In this document: piece by piece, positions 1,736 to 34,369 of the stretch
Position numbering within the stretch: the first letter of the stretch is position 1
Layout: each line of letters begins with the position of its first letter
Source of the DNA: a virus
Length of the DNA stretch: 44,771 nucleotides
Direction: 5' to 3' (one strand)
UHGV virus genome: UHGV-0180729
Program-made: the position numbers and the translations under genes
The notes under the pieces: generated by a model
Told to the model about the DNA's origin: nothing
Databases searched by the model: none
The model's input: the letters and a program-made list of their open reading frames with translations, nothing else

Positions 1736-2236
1736 TTAACTATAATAGTTCGCTATTCGGTAGTCAACTTCTTTTAGCAAATTACTTTCAAAATTCTTTC
1801 TTGCCACGTTAGCCTGTTCAGGAGTTTCGAATAGTCCAAGGTAACGATATTGCCCGTTTACGGTAATTCCAGCCTGCCATTTACCGTGACTTTTGCGCCA
1901 AAACACGCCAGTGTACCCGCTTTTGTTATGACTTCTTCCAGTTTGAATGCCGCCTTTAGCCGCATTATCGCTATGAGCGATTAACTGGAGATTCTCTATC
2001 CTGTCATCATTTCTTATCGCATTTATGTGGTCCACCTCAAACCCTTCAGGTATAGGGCCGTTGTGGTACTCCCATATTAAACGGCTTCTTTGGTAGGACT
2101 TACGGTTAATGTATATCTGCACATACCCTGAATGGTGTAGGCTTCCCGCCTCCTGACCAGCTAACATTCTTTTTGTATTGTGGCGATAGATTAGTTTCCC
2201 GTTTTCATAAATGAAACGCTCCTGAACTAAACTCAT
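1736..2236 (-). CDS. HNH homing endonuclease with AP2-like DNA-binding domain
   Basis: Motif EVDHINAIRNDDRIENLQLIAHSDN (HNH) and C-terminal GVFWRKSHGKWQAGITVNGQYRYLGLFETPEQA (AP2-like); likely start MSLVQERF at 2236 overlapping the upstream stop (ATGA). Confidence 0.8.
   Translation of the reverse strand: MSLVQERFIYENGKLIYRHNTKRMLAGQEAGSLHHSGYVQIYINRKSYQRSRLIWEYHNGPIPEGFEVDHINAIRNDDRIENLQLIAHSDNAAKGGIQTGRSHNKSGYTGVFWRKSHGKWQAGITVNGQYRYLGLFETPEQANVARKNFESNLLKEVDYRIANYYS
1739..1767 (-). promoter_or_regulatory. Sigma70-like promoter, family A (TTGACT-N17-TATAGT), drives the SSB and polymerase genes
   Basis: Minus-strand reading TTGACTaccgaatagcgaactatTATAGT; near-identical copies at 5112-5140 and 42949-42977. 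Confidence 0.55.
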
Positions 2237-3474
2237 TCCAAATCCTCCTCTGTTACCCGATTCCACTCAGGCCGTTTGTCGTCTGCCGTTGCTACACATG
2301 GCGCACCCGGCTTACGAGTAATGAAGTCTTTCAGTTCTTCTTCCGGTAGTACTTTAACAGCTTCGGTCGGCGTCATTAGCACTTCTTTAGTCAGCTTGTC
2401 GCCGTAGAGTTCTGTTACTTTCTCCGCGTCTTTCCACGCACGATTACCAGGGCGACCTTCAACCAGTTTGTACCCCGGCACTTTCTTACCGGAATGCAAT
2501 GCGGCAGCCATAGCTTTTTCAACCTTGTCGATGTGCTGGCGCAACAACGGCAACTTCTCATACTCAGCTACGAGTTGCTCCGGCGTAAGTTCCAGCGCAA
2601 AGTCGTCCTCCAGTTCTTCCGCGAGTACAGAGTTAACGGTCTTTGTACGCGCGGCGCACTGTTCGGAGAACCGGCACCACTGACAACCATCAACCGACGG
2701 CCTGAAGTCCGACGCTTTCAGGTTCTTCTTACCCCGGAAATACGCGTCAAGGGCTAACAGTGCACGTTTCCGCGCGAACTTAGCGAACAGTTCCAGACCT
2801 TCAACCGATATGTCCCACTCTGACGCGCCGCCGGCGTACGGCTGGGAGATGACCAGGCGAACTACTGTGATGTTATAACGTCTCTTTAGTCGGCGATAAA
2901 CACCGATAGCGTAAAGCATAAGCTGCTTGTTTTCTTTCGCTTCGACACGATGTCGTCCTGTTTTAAGGTCGCCGATAATTAGCATGTGCTCATCGGTGTT
3001 AGCCAGTTCCTGAACGGCAACAAGGTCAGCGGTTCCGAACGTCTCAACGCCTTCATACCCCGGATGCAATACCTCAGTAAGATTGACACGCATTTCCAGC
3101 TTGGCGTAAGTCGCTACGTCGATAATTGCTTTGCAATAGTCGGTGTACTTGCGCACCTGCTCAATCATGTCCGCCGTAATCAGTACAGCGCCTTTCATCG
3201 GACTGATTAGCGCCTTAATCTGGCCTTTTCCTTCATCCAGCACGTAAGCGCCAACTTCACGCTCTAACGGCAGCGCAGTGCCTTTGATGTACTGATTTAG
3301 ATGTACCTCGGCTATGGTGTGACACGCGGTCCCTGTAACAGCGGCTTTACCTGACGTGTTAGGAATATCTTTTTCACAGGCCAGTGATGCACTGCACGAC
3401 AGCCACTTTTTAGCGCCAGACGGCGACAGTAAAGCGTGCACATCATTATTGCCGCCGCGTTCTTTTAGAATCAT
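2233..3474 (-). CDS. Cas4-like PD-(D/E)XK exonuclease (DUF2800-like)
   Basis: 413 aa; C-terminal Cys cluster CQWCRFSEQC typical of Cas4-type Fe-S nucleases; GGAGAG Shine-Dalgarno; ends in TEEDLE. Confidence 0.75.
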   Translation of the reverse strand: MILKERGGNNDVHALLSPSGAKKWLSCSASLACEKDIPNTSGKAAVTGTACHTIAEVHLNQYIKGTALPLEREVGAYVLDEGKGQIKALISPMKGAVLITADMIEQVRKYTDYCKAIIDVATYAKLEMRVNLTEVLHPGYEGVETFGTADLVAVQELANTDEHMLIIGDLKTGRHRVEAKENKQLMLYAIGVYRRLKRRYNITVVRLVISQPYAGGASEWDISVEGLELFAKFARKRALLALDAYFRGKKNLKASDFRPSVDGCQWCRFSEQCAARTKTVNSVLAEELEDDFALELTPEQLVAEYEKLPLLRQHIDKVEKAMAAALHSGKKVPGYKLVEGRPGNRAWKDAEKVTELYGDKLTKEVLMTPTEAVKVLPEEELKDFITRKPGAPCVATADDKRPEWNRVTEEDLE

Positions 3475-3818
3475 CGTAAACTCTCCAAGTACAAGTTTAA
3501 TGCCTGTAGCTGTTCTTCTGTGGGGATGAAAGAATCATCACGATGTAAGTCGCTTAACTGTTGCAACATTCCTGCGAACTGACGTCTTGCGTCAATAGCG
3601 ACCATGTGATGCTTTTCACTTTTATATATTAATGTTTTTGGGTAATCCTCAAGCCTGCCGGAAGATTTATTCACGCGGAGCGCCCGAGCTTCATGCGCAA
3701 TGTGTATATACTTTTTACCATTTTGTAGCACAGTAGCTGCGCCACTGTTCTTTCTTCGGTCGCCGACGGTGTAAACCTTGTCGCCGTTTCGCAAATTAAG
3801 CCACCATTTATCCGTCAT
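3471..3818 (-). CDS. Hypothetical protein
   Basis: ORF with ATG at 3818 preceded by GGAGAA; 4-nt ATGA overlap with downstream gene. Confidence 0.5.
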   Translation of the reverse strand: MTDKWWLNLRNGDKVYTVGDRRKNSGAATVLQNGKKYIHIAHEARALRVNKSSGRLEDYPKTLIYKSEKHHMVAIDARRQFAGMLQQLSDLHRDDSFIPTEEQLQALNLYLESLR

Positions 3819-4087
3819 ACCCTGTTCTCCCACTGGTCAATTAAATGTCGTGTCTTATGGTCGCAATGCATTGCCCAACCATACATAGACTCGAAGACAT
3901 AAAAGTCAGGTTTGGCGAAAGTCGTGCGCTTAATCTGTGACACGTGACGGCCTATATCTTTAGGTCGTGGTACTTTGCCTAAGTACGCCATCTCTCCCAT
4001 CTGGTGCGCACCGGACGGCGCTCGCAACATCCATAACGCCTCTGTGTTATCCCGCCTGTCTACGGCACGGTATAGTTGATAAATCAT
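3815..4087 (-). CDS. Hypothetical protein
   Basis: 90-aa ORF, ATG at 4087 preceded by GAGGGA; translationally coupled (ATGA overlaps). Confidence 0.5.
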   Translation of the reverse strand: MIYQLYRAVDRRDNTEALWMLRAPSGAHQMGEMAYLGKVPRPKDIGRHVSQIKRTTFAKPDFYVFESMYGWAMHCDHKTRHLIDQWENRV

Positions 4088-4326
4088 TCAGCGTCCCTCG
4101 CTTCCAGCATTGCATCAGCCATGATGTACGCCATTTGCGCTACTTGCGCGGTGTTCCCAGCGTCTACAGGATGCACTGCATCCGCCGGGTAACTAGCAAG
4201 CCACCCTTGAAGGGCTTTAGCCGCGAAATAATCGCGTAACGTCATGCCATCTTCCGTAGTCCAATCTGAGTTGTAGCCCACGTTACCCAACATAGGGAAA
4301 GCCTGTCCGCCTGTATTTTTACACAT
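4084..4326 (-). CDS. Hypothetical protein (start chosen at internal ATG 4326)
   Basis: The longer track ORF (to 4464) would run through a strong hairpin at 4345-4368 and overlap the upstream gene; ATG 4326 has a GAGGG Shine-Dalgarno. Confidence 0.4.
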   Translation of the reverse strand: MCKNTGGQAFPMLGNVGYNSDWTTEDGMTLRDYFAAKALQGWLASYPADAVHPVDAGNTAQVAQMAYIMADAMLEARDAE

Positions 4327-33665: not shown

Positions 33666-33681
33666 TAACAAAAAAAAATAA

Positions 33682-33706
33682 AGGCCCTTTCGGGCCTTTA
33701 TTTTCT
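33682..33706. terminator. Bidirectional terminator
   Basis: A-run, AGGCCC TTTC GGGCCT, T-run. Confidence 0.7.
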
Positions 33707-33718
33707 CCAGCCTATGGG

Positions 33719-34369
33719 CTAACGCCCCTCTTTTATCAGGGCGATAACGCGGTCGAACATACCTTCCCTTATCGCCTCTATCTCACATCTTCTTGATTCC
33801 GCCACCCTTATCTTTTCAGCAATGTAAGCATATAGCGCTTCTTCCTGAGTTTCAAAACGTCCTAGATTAATAGTTTTTTTATCATAGCTCACTGAGGCTT
33901 TAAATTTACCTCTAGATTCTTCATAAAAAACACCTGTAGGTGTCCCACTATTTTTCTTTTCCTTTAGGAAAACATTCAACCATTTCGGTATGAAAATGCA
34001 AGTGGTAGGGCTGTATACCTTATTAATACCAGAGAATATGTCCTTATCTAGCTCCCATCCCTCCACATAATTACAAAGCCACCATCTACGGAAGGACATA
34101 AACCTTTGCCACCCATGCCACACAGTTACATCCCTGTACGCAGGCCTTTTGTTTTTATACTCGGCGTCCACGCAACGTTGGATCATCCCTCGCCATGTAG
34201 CGTACGCCAGACACGGCTCACGGTTGCCGTTTATCTTGGGGCTAACCACATAATCGGCGTCATTTATGCCAAAATCGCATATAGTTGCACGCTTAGTTTT
34301 GCTGCTTTTGTTCGCAGGATAATTCGCACGCAGCCACATGCTCTTGGCTACTTTTTCGGTTGGCATCAT
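33719..34369 (-). CDS. AP2-domain homing-endonuclease-like protein; HNH motif appears degenerate; paralog of 20510..21079
   Basis: GWELDKDIFSGINKVYSPTTCIFIPKWLN and AP2-like GVFYEESRGKFKASVSYDKKTINLGRFETQEEALYAY; ATG 34369 with AGGAGA Shine-Dalgarno. Confidence 0.55.
   Translation of the reverse strand: MMPTEKVAKSMWLRANYPANKSSKTKRATICDFGINDADYVVSPKINGNREPCLAYATWRGMIQRCVDAEYKNKRPAYRDVTVWHGWQRFMSFRRWWLCNYVEGWELDKDIFSGINKVYSPTTCIFIPKWLNVFLKEKKNSGTPTGVFYEESRGKFKASVSYDKKTINLGRFETQEEALYAYIAEKIRVAESRRCEIEAIREGMFDRVIALIKEGR

Follow-up and report, generated by a model that had tools for sequence, protein, structure and literature searches.

The virus genome UHGV-0180729 was analyzed as a single stretch of 44,771 nucleotides (the window), which shares ∼90% identity with Escherichia Kagunavirus phages of the Guernseyvirinae, such as fEg-Eco19, K1ind3 and K1G. 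The genes under study, termed G1, G2, G3 and G4, are four free-standing homing endonuclease gene (HEG)-like genes, and HEG+ and HEG− denote alleles with or without an HEG. The four genes are probably HEGs of two classes, an I-HmuI-type class represented by G1 and G2 and the IPA-HNH class represented by G3 and G4, with the latter homing through an AP2-guided nuclease that lacks the catalytic histidine. The genes are arranged as follows.

1736..2236, minus strand: G1, a free-standing HNH_3 + AP2 HEG of 166 residues (Pfam HNH_3, phrog_99 and I-HmuI alignment)
12864..13412, plus strand: G2, a free-standing HNH_3 + AP2 HEG of 182 residues (Pfam HNH_3 and phrog_99)
20510..21079, plus strand: G3, an IPA-HNH-class gene of 189 residues with a His-less N-terminal domain and a C-terminal AP2 domain (phrog_953)
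33719..34369, minus strand: G4, an IPA-HNH-class gene of 216 residues, paralogous to G3 and antisense to the tail operon (phrog_953 and AP2)

All four open reading frames (ORFs) were found where an earlier sequence-only reading of the window had placed free-standing HEG-like genes, and G1 occupies the minus strand, as do its neighbors. A tblastn search with G1–G4 against the window revealed no further paralog of these genes.

G1 and G2 are predicted to encode ordinary, classical nucleases of the I-HmuI (HNH_3) type joined to an AP2 domain for DNA binding. The Pfam HNH_3 model matches G1 with an E-value of 4e-18 (65.2 bits) and G2 with an E-value of 2e-13 (50.0 bits; cut-off 24.8 bits), and PHROG 99, labeled "HNH endonuclease", matches them with E-values of 1e-51 and 1e-68, respectively. 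The two proteins share 34% identity. The D69, H70, R79, L83 and N91 residues are invariant in an alignment of G1 and G2 with ten homologs, and the G1/G2 profile aligns the D-H, N-L and N elements (D69-H70, N82 and N91) with those of I-HmuI (1u3e, E 8e-6). The sequence-only reading had assigned both genes an intact HNH motif and an AP2-like domain. The HNH part is confirmed by these matches, whereas the Pfam AP2 matches remain below the cut-off of 33.3 bits (G1, E 3e-5 and 24.7 bits; G2, E 0.026 and 15.3 bits). The G1/G2 family profile matches plant AP2/ERF structures with an E-value of 8e-8. HNH_3 + AP2 homing endonucleases, for which Magnani, Sjolander and Hake 2004 is reportedly the reference, resemble G1 and G2 in their two-domain layout with an I-HmuI-type core (1u3e), their D-H/N/N residues, their free-standing genes and their sporadic occurrence. 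G3 and G4 have only the AP2 half in common with them.

G3 and G4 share 35% identity over 178 residues (E 5e-33) and are mutual paralogs, as had been proposed. Both match PHROG 953 (E 3e-75 for G3 and 2e-63 for G4). The Pfam AP2 model matches G4 (E 3.7e-5), and G3 has no Pfam match. No nuclease model of Pfam or NCBIfam matched either protein, and none of 66 family members matched any Pfam HNH model. At the position where the full-length profile alignment sets the D-H of G1 and G2, both G3 and G4 contain D-K-D, a replacement of the histidine motif that the sequence-only reading had correctly noticed and had taken as a sign of catalytic degeneration. The key residues of G3 are D77, K78, D79, N85, K86, Y88, C93 and N101. 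Among 98 sequences (96 database homologs, G3 and G4), the R34, Y47, W65, K78, D79 and Y88 residues are invariant, and D77, C93 and N101 are kept in 97. The motif DKD..Y....C.......N was observed in 145 of 148 representatives, which are the best-scoring sequences of the family search and are mutually <50% identical; the motif always contains DKD and never D-H-D or D-R-D. The family is large, comprising 7,068 clusters at 50% identity in a profile search of 1.84 billion cluster representatives (E ≤ 1e-30). A catalytic histidine at a shifted position, for which the earlier reading had allowed, was not found: no position of the N-terminal domain contains a conserved histidine across the family (highest ∼31%), and the catalytic histidine has thus not merely moved. 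The full 13-residue family signature is present in both G3 and G4. Comparison with intact orthologs in other Kagunaviruses, which for G4 include those of fEg-Eco19 and vB_VIPECOTH07 (TH07), yielded dN/dS values of 0.09 for G3 and 0.11–0.25 for G4, which represent purifying selection. Based on the D-K-D invariance, the family size, the full signature and the purifying selection, the lack of the histidine is an ancient, fixed and family-defining trait rather than a decay of G3 and G4, and the degeneration suggested earlier is not upheld.

The relatives of G3 extend far beyond the Kagunaviruses. G3 matched 2,598 places in 1,525 phage records by tblastn, including phages of Vibrio, Pseudomonas, Rheinheimera ("Barba"), Bacillus, Klebsiella and others. 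ICP1 isolates were matched at two places per genome with E-values of 5e-12 to 4e-11. The ICP1 protein ADX89390.1 aligns along its length with G3 and carries LDKDIILKGNKCYHPDLCTFVPSEVN and an AP2 domain, and the motif common to G3 and the ICP1 proteins is LDKD...NK.Y....C.F.P...N. The ICP1 proteins gp59, gp115/116 and gp209 have been described as IPA-HNH HEGs, that is, ICP1-like phage AP2-associated HNH HEGs (Barth, Dunham & Seed 2023; PMC10448857). This class is defined by an N-terminal HNH-like domain of atypical kind, which Pfam HNH_3 does not detect, and by a C-terminal AP2 domain, and is abundant in Barba viruses and Pseudomonas phages beside essential genes (PMC10448857). The Barba and Pseudomonas phages named in that study were recovered among the tblastn matches of G3; no Kagunavirus entries were found in its supplementary tables. 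The domain was named HNH there from HHsearch evidence, and the study presents no biochemistry and nowhere mentions the histidine or its replacement. No second paper using the name IPA-HNH was found among the papers searched. G3 and G4 are assigned by their sequences to this bioinformatically defined class as intact members, sharing with it the Pfam-invisible N-terminal domain followed by AP2, the homology to ICP1 proteins and the free-standing position beside tape-measure or head genes. Within the family, some members are tandem duplications with two D-K-D/AP2 units in 400–570 residues, several homologs carry an N-terminal DUF723 (PF05265) domain, and very long proteins with 13–14 AP2 repeats also rank high in the family search.

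AlphaFold2 predicted the structure of G3 with confident pLDDT values of 95.8 (full length) and 92.7 (residues 1–112). The modeled N-terminal domain contains three helices (residues 23–36, 38–43 and 59–69), a strand (residues 74–77), a long loop, a second strand (residues 94–97) and a helix (residues 98–104), and is thus predicted to adopt a beta-beta-alpha arrangement. In the model, D77 and K78 are located at the end of strand 1, Y88 in the inter-strand loop and N101 in the helix. This predicted arrangement may resemble that of PacI, a His-Me finger nuclease in which the catalytic histidine is missing and an inter-strand loop tyrosine is used (PMC5714182 and PMC3384342). The relevant residues are D92-R93...Y100...N113 in PacI (sequence matched at 142 of 142 positions to 3ldy_A) and D77-K78...Y88...N101 in G3. 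In each protein, an aspartate and a basic residue replace D-H, the loop contains a single tyrosine and this tyrosine precedes the helix asparagine by 13 residues. G3 also resembles PacI (3ldy/3m7k; His-Me finger group 20, Jablonska et al. 2017) in the absence of a histidine at the end of strand 1 and in the helical elements ahead of the beta-beta-alpha motif. PacI differs in that it is a restriction enzyme that acts as a homodimer, contains two Cys4 zinc sites and has no AP2 domain, and it shows no significant profile similarity to G3 or G4. A putative structural zinc site of the family consists of C35, C50, C53 and C93, all of which are present in approximately half of the members. The IPA-HNH domain could be a PacI-like, tyrosine-dependent His-Me finger that combines D-K-D with a loop tyrosine and a helix asparagine and has no general-base histidine, a possibility that we consider less likely than not.

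The occupancy of each insertion site was counted among related phage records by megablast of each gene plus its flanks. The G1 site is occupied in 1 of 370 records, the G2 site in 1 of 154 (BUCT825), the G3 site in 7 of 166 and the G4 site in 6 of 410. The comparison with relatives that had been suggested thus shows each gene to be a rare presence/absence polymorphism. At the empty sites, the stop and start codons of the flanking genes overlap. The flanking genes named in the sequence-only reading were all identified: a Gp2.5-like single-stranded DNA-binding protein and an exonuclease for G1, holins and endolysin for G2, a head morphogenesis protein and an Ig-like decoration protein for G3, and the tape measure and the distal tail protein for G4. 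The genes do not lie at module boundaries, as that reading had it, and are instead found at gene junctions within functional modules, mostly where stop and start codons overlap.

Two tracts of recoded sequence in neighboring essential genes co-segregate with G3 and G4.

20173..20385, plus strand: recoded 3′ end (final 70 codons) of the head-morphogenesis gene, co-segregating with G3 (K1ind3/K1ind2 comparison)
20386..21082, plus strand: G3 cassette of ∼696 nt (aligned with K1ind3, HSE2 and fEg-Eco19; HEG− gap of 695–701 nt)
34405..34437, plus strand: recoded 5′ end (33 nt) of the distal tail protein gene, co-segregating with G4 (comparison with K1H, TH07 and fEg-Eco19)

The tract next to G3 is best visualized in two phages of the same species, K1ind3 (HEG+) and K1ind2 (HEG−). 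Codons 1–288 of their head-morphogenesis genes differ at 1 of 864 nt. In codons 289–358, 62 of 210 nt and 13 of 70 residues differ, and the 696-nt G3 cassette follows. The window differs from K1ind3 at 94 of 864 nt (11%) in the upstream part and at 13 of 210 nt (6%) in the recoded tract. Its identity to HSE2 decreases from ∼90% to 64–78% at this tract. In HEG− relatives, the insertion point of the G3 cassette consists of the overlapping stop and start codons TAATGATG. On the G4 side, the window departs from the HEG− phage K1H at 16 of the 33 nt that open the distal tail gene, with just three amino acid changes, and is identical there (0 of 33 differences) to the HEG+ phages TH07 and fEg-Eco19. 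The other 468 nt of this gene show 7–10% divergence in all three comparisons. The tract at 20173..20385 would represent either a co-conversion tract or an immune target allele. The recoded tracts and the G3 and G4 cassettes travel jointly, a sequence pattern that is the classical footprint of break-induced co-conversion and an immune target allele. Neither G3 nor G4 has another HEG within 7 kb that could mobilize it in trans.

The same co-conversion signature was sought around G1 and G2, and their flanks show no clear recoded tract past the junction itself. The ATG of G1 shares the sequence ATGA with the exonuclease stop codon and is preceded by a GAGGAGG Shine-Dalgarno sequence. The sole other G1-positive phage is MirsaeidiM_Esher4, which shares 66–68% identity with the window over ∼150 nt of the exonuclease 3′ region (∼2300..2450). 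In the same stretch (2300..2450), the window is 90–96% identical to the HEG− phage ST20, which represents a local mosaic adjoining G1. The G2 site is the junction of the holin stop and the endolysin start, and the G2 5′ end overlaps the holin 3′ end. In the sole other copy of G2, that of BUCT825 (1652..2163), ACG replaces ATG; this copy is annotated as two fragments, its frame is open throughout, and it may have either an alternative start or a beginning decay.

Other HEGs and insertions were observed in the relatives. fEg-Eco19 contains a third D-K-D paralog (18559..19191) with 36% identity to G3, whose site is empty in the window (∼28575..28604), and two HNH genes at further sites (11334..11840 and 31390..31875). 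These genes indicate that HEGs can occupy many alternative sites in Kagunaviruses. In vB-Eco-KMB35 (1845..3245), and apparently also in vB_Eco_K-01, the distal tail gene adjoining the G4 site has a length of 1401 nt instead of 501 nt. The additional length could be due to a further domain, an intein or some other insertion.

The G3 and G4 cassettes also contain structural elements that may relate to their expression.

20442..20492, plus strand: hairpin followed by UUUUCUUAU (U-run) within the G3 cassette, directly upstream of the G3 Shine-Dalgarno sequence (RNA folding)
33675..33704, both strands: bidirectional intrinsic terminator with a 13-bp stem and A9/T-run flanks, between the stop codons of the tape-measure gene and G4
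34378..34395, both strands: pair of Shine-Dalgarno sequences lying back to back (CTCCTA-N6-TAGGAG), of which one belongs to G4 and the other to the distal tail gene

The hairpin of the G3 cassette has a folding energy of −30.4 kcal/mol (z −4.07) and is 98% conserved in K1ind3. It is possibly a terminator or a translational control element. The terminator at 33675..33704 folds on the plus strand with −22.8 kcal/mol (z −4.2) and on the minus strand with −28.1 kcal/mol (z −5.8). It is found in the HEG+ phages TH07 and fEg-Eco19 and not in K1H, which indicates that the terminator arrived with the G4 cassette. These viable phages carry a strong terminator inside their tail operon, where it separates the tape-measure gene from the distal tail gene. 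The element at 34378..34395 had been described as a palindromic ribosome binding site shared by the two divergent genes. It proved to be two separate inverted Shine-Dalgarno sequences, each serving its own gene, which form a weak 6-bp inverted repeat (−13.4 kcal/mol, z −2.9). The G4 cassette thereby provides the downstream tail gene with a new Shine-Dalgarno sequence; in HEG− phages, that gene is translationally coupled to the tape measure. A scan for sigma-70 promoters around G3 and G4 gave matches at or below the shuffled expectation, and the same scan missed the obvious terminator at 33675..33704, which folding confirmed.

G3 and G4 most likely function as AP2-guided nucleases whose active site lacks the histidine, and this active site is possibly PacI-like and tyrosine-dependent. 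For DNA cleavage, the target sites and the Tyr/Lys chemistry, we infer the following mechanism. The C-terminal AP2 domain would recognize the target of G3 or G4. The N-terminal domain would adopt a beta-beta-alpha-metal-type fold in which the general-base histidine is constitutively a lysine (D-K-D), the residues predicted to bind the metal, D77 and N101, are kept, and the invariant Y88 is positioned in the inter-strand loop. During co-infection, the enzyme would nick or cut the HEG− allele near the gene junction. The HEG+ genome would then serve as the repair template, and the cassette would be copied in together with a short recoded tract of the neighboring essential gene, which would render the HEG+ allele uncleavable. 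Within this scheme, catalysis would most likely proceed as in PacI, using the loop tyrosine, the adjacent basic residue and one metal ion instead of a histidine-activated water.

Several observations weigh against this reading. The footprints prove recombination at the site and not which protein made the break. The full-length hhalign probability of 97% between G3/G4 and G1/G2 comes from the AP2 domain, and an alignment of the N-terminal domain of G3/G4 only with the HNH_3 domain of G1/G2 yielded a probability of 0.3%. Homology of the G3/G4 N-terminal domain to HNH_3 was therefore dropped, and the scaffold that the sequence-only reading had regarded as common to the four genes is not demonstrable once AP2 is removed. 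The hhalign probabilities of the N-terminal domain against PacI, either alone or as a 10-sequence profile, were 0.1–0.2%. A Foldseek search against the PDB yielded nothing significant (best E 1.3), and most of the weak matches were HNH domains. The putative zinc site is incomplete in both proteins, with two of the four cysteines kept in G4 and three in G3. The papers searched contained no biochemical test of an IPA-HNH protein. In addition, His-Me fingers without the histidine are mostly inactive (Smad MH1 and ENPP; PMC5714182).

The last point favors an alternative in which G3 and G4 are domesticated or non-catalytic HEG-derived DNA binders that combine AP2 with an inactive His-Me-finger-like domain and function as site-specific repressors or regulators, or as anti-defense or anti-competitor factors. 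The N-terminal domain has no conserved histidine at all, and His-less His-Me fingers are usually inactive DNA binders (PMC5714182). AP2-containing phage proteins can be pure transcriptional silencers (bioRxiv 10.64898/2026.02.23.707548), and HEG domains have been co-opted as repressors (PMC10448857). G4, which brings along a terminator and a Shine-Dalgarno sequence, resembles a moron in antisense orientation, and strong purifying selection would suit any useful function. However, most members of the genus should carry a useful regulator, and G3 and G4 are present in just 7 of 166 and 6 of 410 related records. Their paralogs are found at many different sites, such as the third one in fEg-Eco19, and the cassettes bear recoded tracts of essential genes whose conversion boundary is sharp, as is characteristic of homing induced by a break. 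The invariant D, K, D, N, Y and N residues fit a metal site with a nucleophile and not merely basic surface residues. Precedents for domesticated binders are Smad MH1, the PLE satellite repressor CapR and the CasPR anti-CRISPRs (CapR + AP2). These proteins resemble G3 and G4 in having HEG-type modules, including AP2, or a nuclease-inactive His-less His-Me finger, but G3 and G4 keep the full set of invariant polar, active site-like residues and display insertion polymorphisms with conversion tracts. The zinc-finger domain of CapR, with its 4–5 conserved cysteines, was not found in G3 or G4, which have no CapR-like match in Pfam or PHROGs and a different motif set, with two cysteines in G4. Because of the sporadic distribution and the conversion tracts, we regard the DNA-binder alternative as less likely than active AP2-guided nucleases, and it is unlikely to be correct.

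An alternative with a somewhat smaller chance retains an active nuclease that is not PacI-like. The Lys78 residue would act as the general base for water in a one-metal HNH mechanism, or the N-terminal domain would have an unrelated fold and active site. K78 is invariant and occupies the histidine position, the profiles give no support for PacI homology, and the weak Foldseek matches include classical HNH domains such as those of colicin E9 and Cas8-HNH. Opposed to this, Y88 is as invariant as K78, and its 13-residue spacing to the helix asparagine equals that between Y100 and N113 of PacI.

Degeneration is part of the HEG life cycle, and G3 and G4 could be decaying, dead remnants of HNH-AP2 HEGs that persist undeleted or are mobilized in trans, as I-TevIII is by T4 mobE. 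This alternative is highly improbable. Trans-homing of a defunct HEG has reportedly been described (PMC2790892), lysine stands for histidine in the full-length profile alignment with G1 and G2, and G4 lacks two cysteines that approximately half of the family has, but random decay would not fix the identical D-K-D, never D-H-D, in thousands of diverged members, the ORFs are intact with omega values of 0.09–0.25 in every ortholog examined, both genes have the full signature, and the nearest HEG is >7 kb away, with none adjacent for trans-mobilization. Simple degeneration of G3 and G4 is thus essentially excluded.

As AP2-guided homing nucleases, G3 and G4 would parallel the T4-type free-standing HEGs of the seg and mob groups (SegG co-conversion and mobE). 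These genes are likewise located between genes of essential operons, occur sporadically among close relatives and are inherited together with a recoded flank, and the hairpins and the Shine-Dalgarno context suggest tight control of expression. They differ in their catalytic families, which are GIY-YIG and zinc-finger HNH, and in that their homing has been demonstrated by experiment.

Other features of the window were inspected as well.

1..989 and 43583..44771, minus strand: DNA polymerase gene split by the window ends, with the frame running on across them

The DNA polymerase gene leaves the window at its start and resumes in frame at its end, indicating that the window is a complete, circularly permuted coliphage genome. 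An endonuclease-like segment in the ORF at 43583..44485 was rejected as a further HEG, because it is the C-terminal part of this polymerase cut off by the permutation point. The ORF at 40576..41091, which adjoins the helicase gene at the site of an HNH gene in fEg-Eco19, was considered as a fifth HEG and rejected as a Toprim primase. The DNA polymerase annotations of CR01, M01 and fEg-Eco19 are split or 300 residues longer, which suggests an intein or an HEG in the polymerase gene elsewhere in the genus. A 105-residue ORF at 11514..11831 (plus strand) matches phrog_9632 (unknown function, E 2e-54) and no Pfam model at E ≤ 1. It weakly resembles the AP2 region of G4 (tblastn E 0.015), the match of G4 to phrog_9632 is also weak (E 0.0019), and the ORF possibly encodes an AP2-like DNA-binding protein that stands alone. 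At 11828..12268 (plus strand), directly upstream of the lysis cassette, follows a gene that resembles those of HslV-family peptidases (phrog_1040). It is a presence/absence polymorphism, being found in BUCT825 and not in SCS44.

The classes of G1–G4 are of known kinds. The additions to the IPA-HNH class are its uniform lack of the histidine (D-K-D), its putative resemblance to PacI, and an HEG+/HEG− pair with a conversion-tract footprint. K1ind2 and K1ind3, which are near-identical around the site and differ by the cassette and the 210-nt recoded tract, provide a natural test system for IPA-HNH homing and its target. For annotation, an absent histidine should not be taken as the mark of a dead HNH nuclease. 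The family of G3 and G4 is very large, unmodeled by Pfam and NCBIfam and consistently His-less, yet its behavior is that of a mobile element. In phage engineering and therapy, the cassettes flag recombination hot spots within operons for the head, the tail, lysis and replication. Should the PacI-like tyrosine mechanism prove true, one of the largest phage HEG families (∼2,600 copies in sequenced phages) would cut by a chemistry known from one restriction enzyme, and PacI would be evolutionarily tied to mobile phage nucleases. The family would then represent a new catalytic type among homing endonucleases and would offer many natural AP2-guided nickases or cutters of diverse specificity.

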